Positions 3,631 to 62,286 of a stretch of 64,000 nucleotides of DNA are shown one piece after another. A program made the position numbers and the translations under genes. The DNA lies in contig CBDCWP010000021.1 in assembly GCA_965223505.1 (NCBI GenBank), forward strand, positions 431,237 through 495,236, given 5' to 3'. Every line of letters starts with the position of its first letter. Within the stretch, counting starts at the first letter, position 1. Source of the DNA: Planctomycetota bacterium. GTDB taxonomy: Bacteria > Planctomycetota > PLA2 > JAEUHO01. The notes under the pieces were generated by a model. That model saw only the letters and a list, made by a program, of their open reading frames with translations. It did not search any database and was not told the DNA's origin.

Positions 3631-4248
3631 GTGTCAGTTGAGACAATCGCCACTGCGCGGCCCCGGCCTGCGCAGAGTGGCTTCAGTTTGCTCGAGGTGC
3701 TCATCGGCGCCGTCGTGCTCGCCGTCGCGTTGCTGGGCCATCTCGCCAGCACCGGAACCGAGCACCGTCTGGCGGAGCAGCAGCGCGTTCGCAGCCAGAT
3801 GCTGCAGACGACGCGCCAGTTCATGGAGCGGCTGCGCTCCGACGAGAACTGGGACACGCTCTACGATCGCCTGCGGACCGCGCAGTTCTCGCTGACCGTC
3901 GACGGCAAGGCCGGCACGGCGCTCGACAGCGGGAAGCTCGCGTGGCAGTTGACCGACTACTACCCGGAGATCGTCGTCCCCGAAACGCTCAGCGACATGC
4001 GAGTCCGCGTGGAGGTCCCCGCGACGCCCACGATGGTCAGTGGGGCACTCGGCATGCGGCTGCGCGAGGACGCGAGTCTCGAACAGTTCGGGCTCCCCGC
4101 GGATCTCGACGGAACCGGGACGATTACGTCCGATGTGTGCGACGACAGCTACGTCGCGCTGCCGGTGGTCGTCACGTTTCGCTGGGAGCTTCGCGGCCAA
4201 GCGGCGCGTGAGATGCGGGTCGCCACGTGGCTCAGGGGGAATCGATAG
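3631..4248 (+). CDS. Prepilin-type N-terminal cleavage/methylation protein (PilV-like)
   Basis: QSG|FSLLEVLIGAVVLAVALLG class III signal; GTG start inferred. Confidence 0.85.
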   Translation: MSVETIATARPRPAQSGFSLLEVLIGAVVLAVALLGHLASTGTEHRLAEQQRVRSQMLQTTRQFMERLRSDENWDTLYDRLRTAQFSLTVDGKAGTALDSGKLAWQLTDYYPEIVVPETLSDMRVRVEVPATPTMVSGALGMRLREDASLEQFGLPADLDGTGTITSDVCDDSYVALPVVVTFRWELRGQAAREMRVATWLRGNR

Positions 4249-6970: not shown

Positions 6971-7921
6971 TCAATCCCAGAGCGACGCGAGCGAGTACGG
7001 CGATCCTTCCGGCGCCCAGAAGCTGCCGTCGATGTAGCGGTGGCCGGCGTCGAGCGCCAAGATCTGCGTCATGTCGTCTTCGTCGAGCTCGAGCGACGCC
7101 GCGGCGAGGTTCTGCGCCATGCGCTCTTTGTTGACCGACTTGGGGATCACGCTCGTTCCGCGGCAAACGGCCCACGCGAGCAGCACCTGTGCGTGGGTGA
7201 CGCCGTGTCGCGCCGCCACCTCGCCGATGACCGGGTGCGTCAGCAGATCGGGGTCGTCTGCCTTGCGCAGCACCTCGGGCCGGTCCGGGGAGCCGAGCGG
7301 CGAGTAGGCCGTGACGTGGACACCGCGCTCGGCGCAGCGGGCGAGCAGGTCCTCTTGCGCCAGGTAGGGGTGCAGCTCGACCTGGTTGACGGCGACGGGA
7401 ACCTCGGCTTGGTCGGCGAGCGCTTCGACCTTCTTCGCGCTGAAGTTCGAGACGCCCAGGTGCCGCACCAGTCCGCCCTTCTTGCACGCCTCCATCGCAC
7501 GCCAGGTCTCCAGCAACGGAACCTCGTCGAGGCTCACGAGATCGGCCGCCGACTCGGGAAAGAACACGCCCGGCTTCAACGCGACCGGCCAGTGCATCAG
7601 GTAGAGGTCGAGCTCGTCGAGCTTCAGATCCCCGAGCGTCTTCTCGAGCGCGGGACGCACGTCGCTCTCGCGGTGCGCGTCGTTCCAGAGCTTGGAGGTG
7701 ATGAACAAGTCCTCGCGTGTGACGTCGCCGTCCTCGATGGCCGCGCGAATCGCCTCGCCGATCTCGGCTTCGTTGGCGTACGCCGCGGCGCAGTCGAAGT
7801 GCCGGTAGCCGAGGCGAATCGCCGTTCGGATGACGGGTGCGACCTCGCCGGGGTCCGACTTCCAGGTGCCGAGGCCCAGGGCGGGAATGGTGCCACCGTC
7901 CGACAGGTCATGGTGCTTCAC
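6971..7921 (-). CDS. Aldo/keto reductase
   Basis: LGLGTWK, GYRHFDCAAAY, FITSKLWN, DLYLMHWP, GVSNF, IPKS; GTG 7921 after GAGGAG. Confidence 0.95.
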   Translation of the reverse strand: MKHHDLSDGGTIPALGLGTWKSDPGEVAPVIRTAIRLGYRHFDCAAAYANEAEIGEAIRAAIEDGDVTREDLFITSKLWNDAHRESDVRPALEKTLGDLKLDELDLYLMHWPVALKPGVFFPESAADLVSLDEVPLLETWRAMEACKKGGLVRHLGVSNFSAKKVEALADQAEVPVAVNQVELHPYLAQEDLLARCAERGVHVTAYSPLGSPDRPEVLRKADDPDLLTHPVIGEVAARHGVTHAQVLLAWAVCRGTSVIPKSVNKERMAQNLAAASLELDEDDMTQILALDAGHRYIDGSFWAPEGSPYSLASLWD

Positions 7922-8042
7922 GGGAGCTCTCCTCTCGCCCGCGTTGTACTCCGGAACCGAGCGTCGAATGAAGTCCTTGCCACGACGAAGGAACACGACG
8001 CGTTCCACGCGCGTCTCCTGGTTTCGCGAATGGAGGTGCGCC

Positions 8043-8294
8043 ATGTCCAGACGAAACAGCCCCGACGATCTCCCGTCCTTTCGATCGGACGAGCAAGCGT
8101 AGAAGGGGGTTCCCTTCCGAGACCCGCGTCGGCCGCGGCGTGCGCGTGGTGCACGGCAACAAGGAGCTTCTCGAGAAGCTCGGCCGCAACGACCTGTGTC
8201 CGTGCGGCTCCGGTCGGCGCTTTCAAGCGCTGCTGCCTTCGTAGCGGCCGCTTTCGACGGCTCGCAGCGGAACGACTACTTCCGCGACGAGTGA
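8043..8294 (+). CDS. Small SEC-C metal-binding protein needing three +1 frameshifts (82 aa if fully shifted)
   Basis: GGAGGT SD, ATG 8043; [18 protein letters not shown] split across frames; TTT-C at 8079, 8221, 8252. Confidence 0.8.
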
Positions 8295-8360
8295 ACCTGC
8301 GCTCCACGGGCTCCGGCCCGTGGAGCATGTCTTCGGAACGGCGATCGCTCGAGTCTGCCG

Positions 8361-9434
8361 CTATTTGTCCGTGATCGCCTGAATCTCGGACAATAGCGCG
8401 TCCGCGACGATGCGGTTCCCGAGCTCGTTCCAGTGCGGGTCCCGGTCGAACTGCGTCGGTTCGGACGATGCCAACTTGGGACGCTCGAAGTACGGAACGA
8501 GATCGATGAACGGGATGCCGAGCGTCTCGCACGCCTGCGCCGCACGCTGTCCGCCGTACGGTGCCGCGATCCAGAGCGGCAGCGAGTGCTCGCCGCAAAG
8601 ATCGCGCAGTCGTTCATAGACGAACTCGAGGGCGACTTGCTCGTCGTCCTCGAAGCGGGCCGGTAGCGCAGGCGCAGCTCCGGACGCCGGCACCACTGCC
8701 GGCTGATCGGTCCGACGTGCCGCACTGACGTAGAAGTGCAGGTAGTTGTAGACCATCGAGTTGTTGACCAGCCAGCCCTCGATCGTGCGTCCGAACTGCT
8801 GCTCGACTTGCTCGTTCTCGATGCGTGCCCGGCCGTTCTCGACGACGACGTACGGCCGCGTGCGCCGAACATCGACGTTCTCCCCTGCGTCGTTGTGGCA
8901 GAACATCAGGAGCACCGCATCCGGCCGTTCGCCGCGATCGAGGCGCTCGCGCAAGAGCAAGTACTCCTGCAGCGAGGAGTACCCGGGCGCACCCAGGTTG
9001 CGGTACACCCGGCCGTCCGAACCCAGATTCATGTGATCGACCCAGGTTCGACCGTCCCGTACACCCCAGCCCCACGTCAGCGAGTCGCCGAGGCACCACA
9101 CCACGTCGACCGTGGACGTGGCATCCTCGGCGATGCGCGACCCGATGTTGCAGCGGCGAAAGCCGTCTTCGTCGTGCGTGATCTCCACGTCGAACTCCGT
9201 CGTGGTGAATCGGGCATCGGCATCGGGACGTCCGACCCAGCCGATACGGGGATGGAACTCGAAGTAGGCGACGAGCACCGTGGGGGTGCGCGGTGCGACG
9301 CCGGCGATGCGCAGGCCGACCTCCGCGAGCAACACGACGAACAGGAGCGAGCCGAGAAGCAACCCAACCCGTGCCGCGACGTATCGAACGCGTGACAGGA
9401 GCCCCTTCTTCGGTATCGGCTCCGACGCGTTCAT
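8361..9434 (-). CDS. Membrane-anchored SGNH/GDSL hydrolase family protein
   Basis: LGDSLTWG, NLGAPGYS, HND, DPHWN. Confidence 0.9.
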   Translation of the reverse strand: MNASEPIPKKGLLSRVRYVAARVGLLLGSLLFVVLLAEVGLRIAGVAPRTPTVLVAYFEFHPRIGWVGRPDADARFTTTEFDVEITHDEDGFRRCNIGSRIAEDATSTVDVVWCLGDSLTWGWGVRDGRTWVDHMNLGSDGRVYRNLGAPGYSSLQEYLLLRERLDRGERPDAVLLMFCHNDAGENVDVRRTRPYVVVENGRARIENEQVEQQFGRTIEGWLVNNSMVYNYLHFYVSAARRTDQPAVVPASGAAPALPARFEDDEQVALEFVYERLRDLCGEHSLPLWIAAPYGGQRAAQACETLGIPFIDLVPYFERPKLASSEPTQFDRDPHWNELGNRIVADALLSEIQAITDK

Positions 9435-46156: not shown

Positions 46157-48007
46157 ATGCGGCACGCCTTCGTTGGATGCCTGCTCCTGGTCGCCGCTGC
46201 GTGCGGTGGCGGGGGCGGCGCCGCCCCCACGCCCCCCGCTCCCGAGGTCGTCGATCTCGGCACTGTTCCCTCGACCGAGGTGACGGCCTTCGTGCAGACG
46301 TTCGTCAACTGGACCGGGCAACCCGCGACGCTGCTCACTGACACCAGCACGGGCGGCTACTCGGTGGCGCCGTTCCAGCTGCCGCTGTTGGTGCAGCCGT
46401 TCGAGGCGGTCGATCTGACGTTACAGCTGATGCCGCCGGGTCCGGGACCGGCGGACGGCATGGTGAAAGTGTTGTTCCAGGCGCCCAACGGCGACCTCGG
46501 CGTCACACAGGAGTTCACGGCGATCGCGGAGCCGCTGAGCCTCGACGTGGACTTGACGCCGCTGGCGTTCGGGGAGGTGCTGCCCGGCACGACGAAGGAC
46601 CTCACCATCAGCGTCGAGAACACGAGCGTCCTGAGTCCGGCGACGCTGAGTCCGATCTTGCTTCCGAGCGCGCTGTTCCAGGTCGTGAACCCGCCGCCGG
46701 TCGTGATCGCGCCCGGTACGACCGGCGATCTGACGATTCGATACGCGCCGACGGGACCCGCGGCGACCGACGGCAACGTCGTGATCAACAGCGTCGGTCT
46801 GCAAGCGCCGATCAACGTTCCGTGTACGGCGACGTCGGGCGGCGAGGAGATCGTCGATCTCGGCACGCAGACGTTCAATGCCAACGGCATGTCGCAGGCG
46901 CACATCGACATCGGCGGCACGGGCATCACCGACCTGCTCTCCGTCGACGTCCCGGACGACGCGATCAGCATGATGATCGAGGGCACCGTGACGGGCACGA
47001 GCATCGTGGGACTCGGTGAGTGGACGGGCCCCGGCGGGCAGGTCTACGAAAACACGCAGCTGACGGGCGAGTTCCTGTGGTTCGACAGCGCCGAGTTCTT
47101 CGTCGCGCGGCTTCCGGCGAGCGACCGAGCGGCGCTCAAGCTGGTGCAGGGCGGCGGCACGTACACGTTCAAGCTGCTGCGCATGGGCGGCAACGACACG
47201 TCGGTGGACGTGCGCGTCATCATCGAGCGGCGGCCCGGGCCGACGGAGAACGTGGCGACGCTCGACCTCAACGTCTGGTTGGCGGACGGGATCGATCCGA
47301 CCGCCGCCAACGCGGCCACGCATCAGGACCTGCAGGACGTGCTCGACAAGATCAAGGAGCTGCTCGGCCAACGCGGCATCACGGTCGGGGACATCGACTA
47401 CTACGACGTCACCAACGCGTCGTACGACCACGTGACGAGCGACGCCGAGTTTCGCGATCTGCTGAAGCTGTCGTCGACGGCGGCGGAGGTGCGGCTGAAC
47501 TTCTTCTTCGTCGAGACGGCGCTGGGCGGTGGCGTGCTCGGCGTGGCCGGCGCGATCGACGGACCGAAGCTCAACGGCACGGCCTCGTCGGGCGTGATGG
47601 GACTGTGGATCGACAACCCGTCGGCGAACGACGTGGACCTCGTCGGCACGGTCGCAGCGCACGAGATGGGGCACCTGCTCGGCTTGTTCCACACGGCGGA
47701 GTCGGACGGGACGCACGATCGGATCGACGACACGAGCGATTGCGGATCGGGCGGGTGCACCGGCGACGGCAATCCCGACAACGACTACTTGATGCACTGG
47801 AGTGCGAGCACCGGGGGCGGGGCGATCTCGCCGGCGCAGGGGACGATCCTGCGCAGTCATCCACTGATGACCGAAGCGCTGCCGACGGCGCCGCTCACGA
47901 GCAAGCCGGCGGCGTCGAGGGTCGGCGGGCCGATCGCGGTGCATCCGAACTGGTGCGGGACCTGTCGTCACTGCGCGAAGAAGAAGGCGGCGGGCGGCGG
48001 CCGCTGA
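46157..48007 (+). CDS. Lipoprotein with Ig-like (ASH-type) domains and zinc metalloprotease domain
   Basis: Lipobox VAAAC; HEMGHLLGLFH; NDYLMHW Met-turn. Confidence 0.82.
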   Translation: MRHAFVGCLLLVAAACGGGGGAAPTPPAPEVVDLGTVPSTEVTAFVQTFVNWTGQPATLLTDTSTGGYSVAPFQLPLLVQPFEAVDLTLQLMPPGPGPADGMVKVLFQAPNGDLGVTQEFTAIAEPLSLDVDLTPLAFGEVLPGTTKDLTISVENTSVLSPATLSPILLPSALFQVVNPPPVVIAPGTTGDLTIRYAPTGPAATDGNVVINSVGLQAPINVPCTATSGGEEIVDLGTQTFNANGMSQAHIDIGGTGITDLLSVDVPDDAISMMIEGTVTGTSIVGLGEWTGPGGQVYENTQLTGEFLWFDSAEFFVARLPASDRAALKLVQGGGTYTFKLLRMGGNDTSVDVRVIIERRPGPTENVATLDLNVWLADGIDPTAANAATHQDLQDVLDKIKELLGQRGITVGDIDYYDVTNASYDHVTSDAEFRDLLKLSSTAAEVRLNFFFVETALGGGVLGVAGAIDGPKLNGTASSGVMGLWIDNPSANDVDLVGTVAAHEMGHLLGLFHTAESDGTHDRIDDTSDCGSGGCTGDGNPDNDYLMHWSASTGGGAISPAQGTILRSHPLMTEALPTAPLTSKPAASRVGGPIAVHPNWCGTCRHCAKKKAAGGGR

Positions 48008-57441: not shown

Positions 57442-58377
57442 ATGAGGATCACAGTGCTGGCCGGTGGCGTGGGCGCCGCGCGCTTCCTCGACGGCCTCTG
57501 CCGGGTCGCCGCTCCGAGCGACATAACGGTGATCTGCAACGTCGGCGACGACTTCGAGTGGCACGGACTCCACATCTCGCCGGACATCGACACGGTCATC
57601 TACACGCTCGCGGGGCTCGTGGGCGAGCAGGGATGGGGCGTACGAGACGACACGCGAGCGGCGCTCGATGCGCTCGCGGAACTCGGCGAGGAGCCATGGT
57701 TCCTCGTTGGCGACCGCGACCTCGCGACCCACATCTGGCGCAGCGAACGGCTGCGCACGGGCACCGCATTGAGCGAGGCGACCTCGGAGCTCGCGAGGCA
57801 GCGAGGCCTCGAGCTGCGGGTGCTGTCGGTGACCGACGATCCGCACCCGACCGTGGTCGTGACGCCGGACGGGCCGCTCGACTTCCAGGACTACTTCGTG
57901 CGGGGACGCGCCAGCGCCGAGGTAATCGGCGTGGAGTTTCCCGGCGCTGCCGAGGCGCAGCCGGCGCCGGGCGTCCTCGATGCGATCGCCGAGGCCGAGT
58001 TGATCGTGACGGCACCGAGCAACCCGTTCGTCTCGATCGCGCCGCTGCTCGCTGTGCCGGGTGTGCGCGAGACGATCGAGGGCGCCGCGGCGTCGCGCGT
58101 CGCCGTCAGCCCGGTCGTCGGCGGCGAGGCGGTGAAGGGGCCTGCGGCGGCCATGCTGCACTCGCTCGGGCACCAGGTCTCCGCCCTCGGCGTCGCGCGC
58201 CAGTACGCGGGGCTCGTCGACGTGTTTGTGCTCGACGAGGTGGACCGTGCGCTCGCTCCCGCCGTCGACGCGCTCGGCATGCGCGCGACCGTGACCGACA
58301 CGATGATGACGAGCATCGAGCGTCGCGAGGCGCTTGCGCGCTTCGTCGTCGAGAGCGCGACACGAACACGAGGCTAG
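57442..58377 (+). CDS. cofD: 2-phospho-L-lactate transferase (F420 biosynthesis)
   Basis: LAGGVGAARF, NVGDD, SPDIDT, GDRDLATH, PSNPFVSI, KGPA. Confidence 0.93.
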   Translation: MRITVLAGGVGAARFLDGLCRVAAPSDITVICNVGDDFEWHGLHISPDIDTVIYTLAGLVGEQGWGVRDDTRAALDALAELGEEPWFLVGDRDLATHIWRSERLRTGTALSEATSELARQRGLELRVLSVTDDPHPTVVVTPDGPLDFQDYFVRGRASAEVIGVEFPGAAEAQPAPGVLDAIAEAELIVTAPSNPFVSIAPLLAVPGVRETIEGAAASRVAVSPVVGGEAVKGPAAAMLHSLGHQVSALGVARQYAGLVDVFVLDEVDRALAPAVDALGMRATVTDTMMTSIERREALARFVVESATRTRG

Positions 58378-61506: not shown

Positions 61507-62286
61507 ATGGCCGCTGCACGATTCGAGGGCAAAGTCGCCGTGATCACCGGGGCGGCCGGCGGCATCGGACGCGCCGCAGCCGAACGACTCGCGTCCGAGG
61601 GCGCAAACGTGGTGCTCGTCGACCTCGAGGGAAGCGATCTCGCGGCGGCGGTCGACGCCGTTGAGACCGCTGGTGGCCAGGCGCTCTCCGTCGAAGCGGA
61701 TGTGACGCGCGCTGCCGATGTCGAGCGATACGTGCAGGAGGCGATCGGGCGCTTCGGGCAGATCGACGTCTTCTTCAACAACGCCGGCATCGAGGGCGTC
61801 GTGCAGCCGCTGACCGCATACCCCGAGGATGTCTTCGACCGCGTGATCGCGGTCAACCTGAAGGGTGTGTGGCTCGGGATGAAGCACGTCGCTCCGGCGA
61901 TGGCCGAGCGCGGCGACGGGGCCATCGTGAACACGGCCTCGACGGCCGGTCTCGGCTCGACGCCCGGCATCATCGCGTATGGCGCGAGCAAGCACGCGGT
62001 CGTTGGCATGACGAAGACCGCAGCCATGGAGCTCGCGCGCTCGGGCGTCCGGGTCAACGCGATCTGTCCCTCCCCGATCGAGACGCGAATGATGCGCTCA
62101 CTCGAGGAGGGAATGGCGCCCGGCGACGCGGAGGCCGCGCACGTGCGCTTCGCTCGCAACATCCCCCTCGGCCGCTACGGCGAACCCGAGGAGGTCGCGT
62201 CGCTCGTCGCGTTCCTCGCGAGTGACGAGGCGGCCTACATCACCGGCGGCGTCTACACCGTCGACGGCGGCTCGCGGGCGAGGTAG
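61507..62286 (+). CDS. SDR family oxidoreductase
   Basis: TGAAGGIG, NNAG, YGASK. Confidence 0.93.
   Translation: MAAARFEGKVAVITGAAGGIGRAAAERLASEGANVVLVDLEGSDLAAAVDAVETAGGQALSVEADVTRAADVERYVQEAIGRFGQIDVFFNNAGIEGVVQPLTAYPEDVFDRVIAVNLKGVWLGMKHVAPAMAERGDGAIVNTASTAGLGSTPGIIAYGASKHAVVGMTKTAAMELARSGVRVNAICPSPIETRMMRSLEEGMAPGDAEAAHVRFARNIPLGRYGEPEEVASLVAFLASDEAAYITGGVYTVDGGSRAR

Follow-up and report, generated by a model that had tools for sequence, protein, structure and literature searches.

The question raised by this locus is how a small gene whose coding sequence passes through three successive changes of reading frame could encode a single conserved protein. The gene, which encodes a SEC-C zinc motif, lies in a stretch of 64,000 nucleotides (nt) from a Planctomycetota bacterium (GCA_965223505.1, contig CBDCWP010000021.1, positions 431,237 to 495,236 of the forward strand). 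This whole stretch is referred to here as the window, and all coordinates are positions within it. A sequence-only reading of the window had proposed that the gene is decoded by programmed multi-step +1 frameshifting. Comparison with relatives supports this, in that shifts at shared Phe positions are required in 77 of 79 family genes, and the best explanation is probably programmed +1 ribosomal frameshifting at several sites at which UUU is followed by a pyrimidine (UUU-Y).

The gene is on the forward strand. Its ATG at 8043 lies 5 nt downstream of the Shine-Dalgarno (SD) sequence GGAGGT (8032-8037), and its 82 codons form one reading frame only if TTT-C is taken as a single step at 8079, 8221 and 8252. 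The first segment, a leader of 13 residues (M1 to F13, 8043-8081), is in the frame of the start codon and runs into shift site 1, TCC TTT C GAT (8076-8085). There, TTT occupies 8079-8081, the skipped base is the C at 8082, and the next 0-frame codon is CGA; without a shift, frame 0 ends at TAG 8100-8102. The second segment (D14 to F60, 47 residues, 8083-8223) holds the conserved core, of which the first half of the SEC-C motif is part, and ends at shift site 2 (8221-8224, context CGC-TTT-CAA), where TTT 8221-8223 and its C are followed by AAG, the next 0-frame codon being CAA. An unshifted frame ends here at TAG 8242-8244. The third segment (K61 to F70, 10 residues, 8225-8254), in the second +1 frame, leads to shift site 3 (8252-8255, context CGC-TTT-CGA; TTT 8252-8254, then C and GAC, with CGA as the next 0-frame codon), past which the unshifted frame is open until 8374. 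The third +1 frame contains the last segment (D71 to E82, 12 residues) and the stop codon TGA 8292-8294 (8256-8294 together). Every coordinate in the sequence-only reading, from the SD and ATG to the three TTT sites, the stops and the frames, holds to the base. Decoding TTTC as a four-base Phe codon gave a single 82-residue protein with exactly three such steps, at F13, F60 and F70.

Site 2 divides the metal-binding motif (residues 48-66, 8185-8242) between its two Cys pairs. All four predicted metal ligands, C52, C54, C63 and C64 (C-x-C ... C-C/H), are present, and the second pair is in the +1 frame past the site. Against Pfam PF02810 (SEC-C, gathering score 20.4 bits), the unshifted open reading frame (ORF) 8140-8241 scored 30.0 bits over model positions 1-14 of 19; with site 2 shifted the score rose to 37.9 bits over 19 of 19 positions, as expected if the second shift restores the motif. 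The second shift had been held the best supported of the three, and it is well backed. The first and third had been thought to rest on the SD, the ATG and the repeated context, and here the earlier assessment was too cautious: they are also supported by homology and by identical sites elsewhere. In a search of 5.8 billion proteins, 2004 of 2012 candidates matched the joined protein at E<=0.01, the best at E 1.8e-30 with 70% identity over 96% of the query; the top matches had 63-85% identity, several of them spanning 96-99% of the query. All four segments matched continuous proteins in a 26-sequence alignment, with Phe kept at every junction, and the joined protein retains every one of the 13 invariant residues of a 72-protein alignment from which it was left out. 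As judged from these alignments, the window gene belongs to a widespread family whose products are small basic proteins of ~65-85 residues that carry a SecA-type SEC-C metal-binding knuckle.

The family was surveyed by a scan of one genome per species, which gave at least 581 confirmed loci, the best 80 of which were kept (L001-L080). With the window these made 81 sequences. The extension motif was located in 79 of them (78 other species and the window), and these were analysed; L046 and L047 run off their contigs. Sites were read by core-frame anchored DNA, by frame-tolerant alignment of the family profile to DNA and by tblastn, in which many loci matched the query in two frames, and then classed site by site. 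The sequence-only reading had named uniformly continuous homologues, with no conservation of TTTC, as the finding that would speak against it. The reverse was observed: a +1 shift is required once or more in 77 of the 79 genes, and no gene for which the state of all four sites was determined has an unbroken frame throughout. The shifts cluster at four recurring conserved Phe positions, nearly always TTT followed by T or C, and in the DNA alignment the single-base gap columns fall exactly at these sites. Genes that are unshifted at a position carry TTC, TAC or TAT where shifted genes have TTT and a pyrimidine. The earlier rule of C-UUU-C is therefore correct for the UUU-C of the three window sites and too narrow for the family, in which UUU is followed by U or C and the preceding base varies among C, G and A. 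A total of three +1 shifts, as in the window, is the commonest (39 of 79 genes). By site, one +1 shift each at sites 1, 3 and 4 is the commonest architecture (35 of 79 genes); the version with two steps at site 1 was found in 11 genes. The window pattern, sites 1, 2 and 3, is unique among the 79, and each of its sites taken singly is common to other genomes.

Site 1 is Phe13, which precedes E/D-x-x-SKRR in the family; the family DNA consensus at the start is AAGGAGGTG then CATG. The best combination of SD and start codon lay in a frame needing one +1 shift in 59 of the 81 sequences. Among the others, two +1 shifts or one -1 shift are needed in 14, all with a run of seven T, two are in frame, and six were left undetermined. 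The site takes the form TTT-CGA in the window and many loci, TTT-TGA in 10 loci, or TTT-TTT-CGA. In 58 relatives with a leader frame like that of the window, position -4 is D or E in 41 and the shift codon encodes F in 55, and the selection signal in the leader frame is weaker than past site 3 (entropy 1.34/1.28/1.59 at the three codon positions). Site 2, Phe60 within the SEC-C motif, is shifted in 11 of the 79 genes and in the truncated L047. It reads TTT-CAA in nine sequences (the window, L026, L028, L047, L050, L057, L067, L073 and L075), TTT-CCG in L016 and L034, and TTT-TAA in L080; metagenome proteins stop at this Phe or carry wrong-frame tails beyond it.

Site 3 is Phe70, before DGxxRxxYF, and 61 sequences are shifted between residues 64 and 70. 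TTT with T or C, ahead of the Asp/Glu codon, accounts for 51 of these, mostly as TTT-TGA, while CTT-T and CTG-T/C occur in three each and the remaining four shift elsewhere, including three Acidobacteriaceae at CTT-CGG-C. The TTT-CGA form of the window was also found in L012, L055, L063, L069, L072 and L074. Coding-type conservation in the shifted frame, one of the checks suggested earlier, was clear past this site: over 27 nt of the +1 frame in 60 loci the codon-position entropy was 0.66/0.55/1.28, which indicates purifying selection. A fourth family site, Phe79 in the sequence YF then R-E/D-stop, goes beyond the earlier reading and is continuous in the window, where segment 4 has TTC CGC at 8280. 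A +1 shift is needed here in 62 of the 79 genes, 12 including the window are continuous, and five are unclear. The 62 comprise TTT-TAG (36), TTT-CAG (18), TTT-CCG (6) and two others, so that TTT with T or C makes up 60 of them. The 12 continuous genes have TTC, TAC, TGG or AGC followed directly by an Arg codon, and the R-E/D-stop tail is identical in shifted and continuous genes.

These distributions bear on the simplest alternative, in which the three extra bases would be homopolymer over-calls in the window assembly and the true gene would be continuous. Each of the three is indeed a single extra base at a TT(T) run, and the combination of sites in the window occurs in no other of the 79 genes. 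Such errors are nevertheless extremely unlikely as an explanation, since each site recurs in the same form in independent genomes assembled by differing methods. The carriers include MEGAHIT- and SPAdes-named contigs, long-read metagenome-assembled genomes (MAGs) and isolates, two of them with finished chromosomes; among the isolates are Stieleria magnilauensis TBK1r (L061), Novipirellula sp. SH528 (L065), Massilia pinisoli JCM 31316 (L019) and Acidobacteriaceae KBS 96 (L038). The codon usage of the window points the same way. In 45 ORFs with high GC at third codon positions (GC3), a crude set that may include wrong-strand frames, TTT makes up 27 of 441 Phe codons, compared with three of five in this gene (binomial P 0.002); its remaining two Phe codons, at 8110 and 8280, are TTC, the norm here, as had been noted earlier. 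Of those 27 TTT codons, 21 have C next, yet their ORFs hold frame, and a coarse GC3-based frame-switch scan of the window found no break at TTT-Y elsewhere. TTT-C in this DNA is thus neither an assembler artefact nor an automatic shift.

A gene whose table-11 frame is broken three times in 250 bases might also be a recently inactivated copy with three independent insertions, and decay does occur in the family. A degraded copy, L081, is carried by a Ca. Manganitrophus plasmid (CP114562.1, ~3960-4200); it is unannotated, has an in-frame stop and has lost Cys and Pro residues. The plasmid and phage collections that were searched contained two degraded copies, both on Ca. Manganitrophus plasmids, and none in phages. 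L081 sits between a tyrosine recombinase gene and SIR2/ATPase genes, and the same match was found on a second plasmid, CP114554.1. The window copy has a different character: all 13 invariant residues are retained, conserved positions are free of nonsense and missense changes, and the SD, the start codon and the hairpin after the stop codon are intact. All three lesions are of the sole kind that re-pairing of tRNA-Phe could absorb, and the same lesions are under purifying selection in 77 of 79 genes. Recent inactivation is therefore very unlikely.

It is also conceivable that no frameshifting takes place, and that the locus consists of separate short ORFs, namely a leader peptide, an independently initiated or reinitiated core, and an untranslated 3' remnant. 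Many Planctomycetota members have Met16 with the leader stop overlapping it (ATGA) or lying two codons on, and databases annotate proteins of 55 residues from Met16 to Phe70. A profile search of 1.84 billion representatives gave 897 proteins at E<=1e-10; among the best 150 of these predicted proteins, 44 end exactly at the Phe of site 3 and 10 exactly at that of site 2 (hand count), and the database proteins that were fetched end at GSG..F or bear a wrong-frame tail like that of the window. In P0053, P0127, P0137 and others, gene callers have added false N-terminal extensions of up to ~150 residues in the core frame; this frame lacks a nearby stop or a proper start.

Initiation at the core does not fit the window copy, in which the core frame has no ATG, GTG or TTG before GTG 8140, yet the invariant residues S17, K18, R19, P24, S25, E26, V29 and G32 lie 5' of that codon, so that this stretch would have to be read from site 1. 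Residue 16 is Thr or Ser in about a third of members, and a break at site 2 would cut the metal-binding motif between its Cys pairs. Past sites 3 and 4, the tails match those of continuous genes in amino-acid pattern and in third-position variation. Their conservation implies that translation in that frame is required, and no start codon is available for it. Separate ORFs were consequently considered unlikely.

The remaining alternative would place the correction outside ordinary tRNA-Phe slippage, either at the RNA level by transcriptional slippage or editing, or in a dedicated tRNA that decodes four bases. The run of seven T at site 1 in fourteen relatives is long enough for polymerase slippage, and one odd tRNA-like feature, its anticodon four bases long, was called in the window by ARAGORN. 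Polymerase slippage is known at sites much longer than a run of three or four U. PMC5009743 discusses such slippage for runs of 6-9. A tRNA reading UUUY wherever it occurs would be harmful at the 21 ordinary TTT-C codons that are in frame in the window, and the anticodon of the odd call, tcgg, is unrelated to UUUY. That call (47828-47911, reverse strand) had no Rfam tRNA match at E<=1 and is probably a false positive. An RNA-level correction or a special tRNA is therefore highly improbable.

Programmed ribosomal frameshifting would proceed as follows. With peptidyl-tRNA-Phe on UUU in the P site, the A site would present a 0-frame codon that is a stop in most relatives (UGA, UAG or UAA) or a minor sense codon in the window (CGA or CAA, which represent 8.1% of Arg and 12.5% of Gln codons there). 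During the wait at the A site, tRNA-Phe would re-pair one base ahead, onto UUU or UUC, and decoding would pick up again at a GAN, AAG or AGR/CGC codon. Re-pairing from UUU to UUU or UUC would account for the fourth base being a pyrimidine. Three such events in the window copy, at 8079-8082, 8221-8224 and 8252-8255, would yield the 82-residue protein, whereas ribosomes that did not shift would terminate 6 codons past site 1, 6 codons past site 2 or 40 codons past site 3. The identity of the A-site codon is fixed by the next residue (D, E or K), and it is thus not independent evidence for slow decoding. According to PMC5009743, UUU_Ynn has a particular propensity for +1 frameshifting in bacteria, UCC_UUU_CGU is the influenza shift cassette, as the sequence-only reading had also noted, and a minority of prfB genes have UUU_U in place of CUU_U. 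The conservation of the sites across phyla, their UUU-Y form and the purifying selection are comparative evidence, and from them we infer that the shift is ribosomal.

Several observations weigh against this explanation. The support for ribosomal shifting comes, in every member, from comparative sequence, and the 80 loci were the best-scoring of at least 581, so that genes with long unbroken cores are over-represented. RNAalifold with 78 sequences detected no conserved structure (-0.2 kcal/mol, 4 pairs), and hence no stimulator can be proposed; nor was a conserved purine-rich or SD-like element seen upstream of the sites in the alignment, which was judged by eye only. Three serial shifts with sense codons in the A site would give a low yield unless each were efficient. 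Some members have a P-site codon that is non-slippery, namely CTG, with T or C next, at site 3 (L037, L045 and L065) and TTC-T at site 4 (L068). As these codons cannot re-pair in the +1 frame, such members may use another +1 mechanism or shift poorly. In L026, L050 and L073, the +1 shift at site 2 is accompanied by a +2/-1 step nearby. The annotated protein P0018 reads the wrong frame over the second Cys pair and then returns. These four could be compensated frameshifts or degenerate copies. The 14 leaders with seven T, which require two +1 shifts or one -1 shift, might be served by polymerase slippage or by re-initiation at the overlapping Met16 ATG, and in members with Met16 generally a bypass of site 1 by such re-initiation is conceivable. 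None of these escapes from the re-pairing model applies to the window copy, because its core frame lacks a start codon upstream of GTG 8140 and its metal site is split by site 2.

Among known recoding systems, prfB, which encodes release factor 2 (RF2), is the closest in form. At its CUU_UGA_C the P-site tRNA slips +1 onto an overlapping codon while UGA waits in the A site, and the family sites resemble it in the 0-frame stop (UGA or UAG) that follows UUU in most relatives. Most site 3 sequences are UUU-UGA-C/T, and three have CUU-UGA-T/A, which contains the RF2 tetranucleotide. The full RF2 cassette, with CUU_UGA_C, an SD-like stimulator three bases upstream and a UGA-reading product, is absent from the window, which has UUU_CGA and UUU_CAA instead. 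Against the three or four sites of the SEC-C genes, prfB has one, and because the SEC-C product is not a release factor, no autoregulatory loop like that of prfB is evident.

The same UUU_Y tetranucleotide, with presumed re-pairing of tRNA-Phe, is described for Yersinia YopN-TyeA, a Mesorhizobium ICE and influenza PA-X in PMC5009743, and site 1 of the window (TCC-TTT-CGA) is one base off the PA-X cassette UCC_UUU_CGU. Those are single sites giving a minor fusion or alternative product, whereas the serial sites of the SEC-C family appear obligatory for the one product that is conserved, and the subset of the four that is present varies with lineage. Several +1 shifts per coding sequence, often at a stop codon, are reported in 10.1101/2022.02.17.480897 and PMC12275403 for Euplotes nuclear genes and some mitochondrial genes (Perkinsus). 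Those cases reflect a genome-wide change in how termination or decoding works; the SEC-C case concerns one gene family of ordinary bacteria, and the other in-frame TTT-C codons of the window are read normally.

The product itself shares the CPCGSG...CC motif (Pfam SEC-C) with the SecA C-terminal domain and with YecA/YchJ, and differs from these proteins in having no SecA, UPF0149 or NTF2-like domain. Its N-terminal 45 residues match no named family; the protein has a basic N-terminus and the zinc knuckle. The SecA-type domain has been reported to bind SecB and ribosomes, and an iron ligand has been reported for it. NCBIfam has no dedicated model for the family, and its YchJ/YecA-type models matched only the SEC-C stretch, all below their cut-offs. 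An AlphaFold2 model of a continuous homologue (P0004, 72 sequences) was weak (mean pLDDT 62, pTM 0.40), with a predicted beta hairpin. Matches in the ESM Atlas were other small SEC-C clusters only, some labelled viral, and serve as a lead only. The closest relatives of the small gene are in Gemmatimonadales MAGs (72-74% nucleotide identity).

The neighbourhoods of homologues, which the sequence-only reading had recommended for inspection, were compared by clustering of flanking ORFs and Pfam scans. RNA-repair genes were present within 4 kb in at least 26 of the 80 loci, mostly directly downstream on the same strand, and were the first same-strand ORF downstream in 14 of 72 loci. They encode Hen1, Pnkp, RtcB, RNA ligase, Ro60/TROVE, a Thg1-like enzyme with an AAA_33 kinase, and RlaP. 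The region after the gene is also structured: in 74 genes, the 60 nt past the final stop fold at a mean of -22.7 kcal/mol compared with -15.3 kcal/mol in control windows, with z < -1 in 69%. In the window copy, an 11-bp GC-rich hairpin (8301-8326, forward strand) begins 6 nt past the stop codon and is terminator-like without a T run; RNAfold gave -28.4 kcal/mol for 8295-8354, and a consensus terminator scan did not call the hairpin.

In most family genes, a strong hairpin was seen within a few bases of the stop, and several of these are terminator-like with a T run. Some terminator-like hairpins lie between the small gene and same-strand Hen1, Pnkp or RNA-ligase genes (e.g. L021, L039, L040 and L062). 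The position of the hairpins ahead of same-strand repair genes suggests a possible attenuation control of those genes. In a third of loci, the arrangement of a short SD-bearing ORF, a hairpin and an operon resembles that of pheL, pyrBI-type attenuation and frameshift-dependent ermC induction, and leader-ORF frameshifting that opens downstream expression is described in PMC5009743. Unlike leader peptides, the SEC-C product is a conserved protein with a folded domain, no alternative antiterminator structure was found, and the downstream gene in the window is convergent. The gene also occurs on its own, the window copy being one example, and so is more than a leader.

With low to moderate confidence, we infer that the yield of full-length protein, being the product of three or four slip probabilities, gives the gene a steep read-out of any slowing in A-site decoding or termination, as might be expected after tRNAs or the decoding centre are damaged, and that the full-length zinc protein takes part in responding to damage of the RNAs used in translation. 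The sensor idea of the earlier reading would take a concrete form through the link to RNA-repair operons. To our knowledge, the regulation of the response to translation-machinery damage outside the RtcR system is largely unknown. One tentative model, possible although we do not regard it as likely, is a 'frameshift counter', a sensor that either stands alone or leads an operon and in which three or four serial UUU-Y slips would turn a modest global slowing into a steep rise of a small ribosome- or RNA-binding zinc protein that switches on or assists RNA repair (Pnkp/Hen1, RtcB, Ro60, Thg1-like, RlaP). The trigger might be cleavage of tRNAs, damage at the decoding centre, too little release factor or hypomodified tRNA-Phe, and lineages would tune the sensor by moving sites among the four Phe positions and by choosing a stop or sense codon past UUU. 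Two observations count against a repair role: repair genes are missing from the neighbourhood of about two thirds of the loci, and the window copy stands alone, no repair homologue being found in the 64 kb by tblastn of repair proteins (none at E<1e-3).

Very few chromosomal genes of bacteria are known to us to use programmed +1 frameshifting, and each of these has one site only. The system appears to be undescribed, as had been suspected. Literature searches on UUU +1 frameshifting, SEC-C and RNA repair, with supplements and the Burroughs and Aravind 2016 survey outside their scope, returned no description of the family, and the small SEC-C family is not mentioned in the available sections of PMC5009743, PMC3711429, PMC12776372 and 10.1101/2025.10.02.679949. 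UUU-Y +1 sites are known; what is apparently new is a bacterial family with three or four obligatory sites, lineage-specific combinations of them and a link to RNA repair. If serial shifts within ~80 codons are the normal route of expression, this would represent a new recoding architecture in at least 581 species representatives, and current annotation would systematically mis-call the family as 55-residue stubs or falsely N-extended ORFs. The recurrent place of the gene ahead of RNA-repair operons would tie recoding to the response to translation-machinery damage.

In the window, the SEC-C gene lies between a divergent aldo/keto reductase gene (6974-7921, reverse strand) and a convergent GDSL hydrolase gene (8364-9434, reverse strand). 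A promoter scan found none, and an Rfam scan of 7850-8450 gave no match at E<=1. The coarse GC3 scan flagged possible +1 switches at 58366-58375 and 62257-62260 (both forward strand), between long open stretches and neither at TTT-Y, and five further places that look like ordinary gene boundaries. The stop codons of the 45 high-GC3 ORFs were TAG in 28, TGA in 16 and TAA in one, a distribution that is unusual for a genome of 67% GC.

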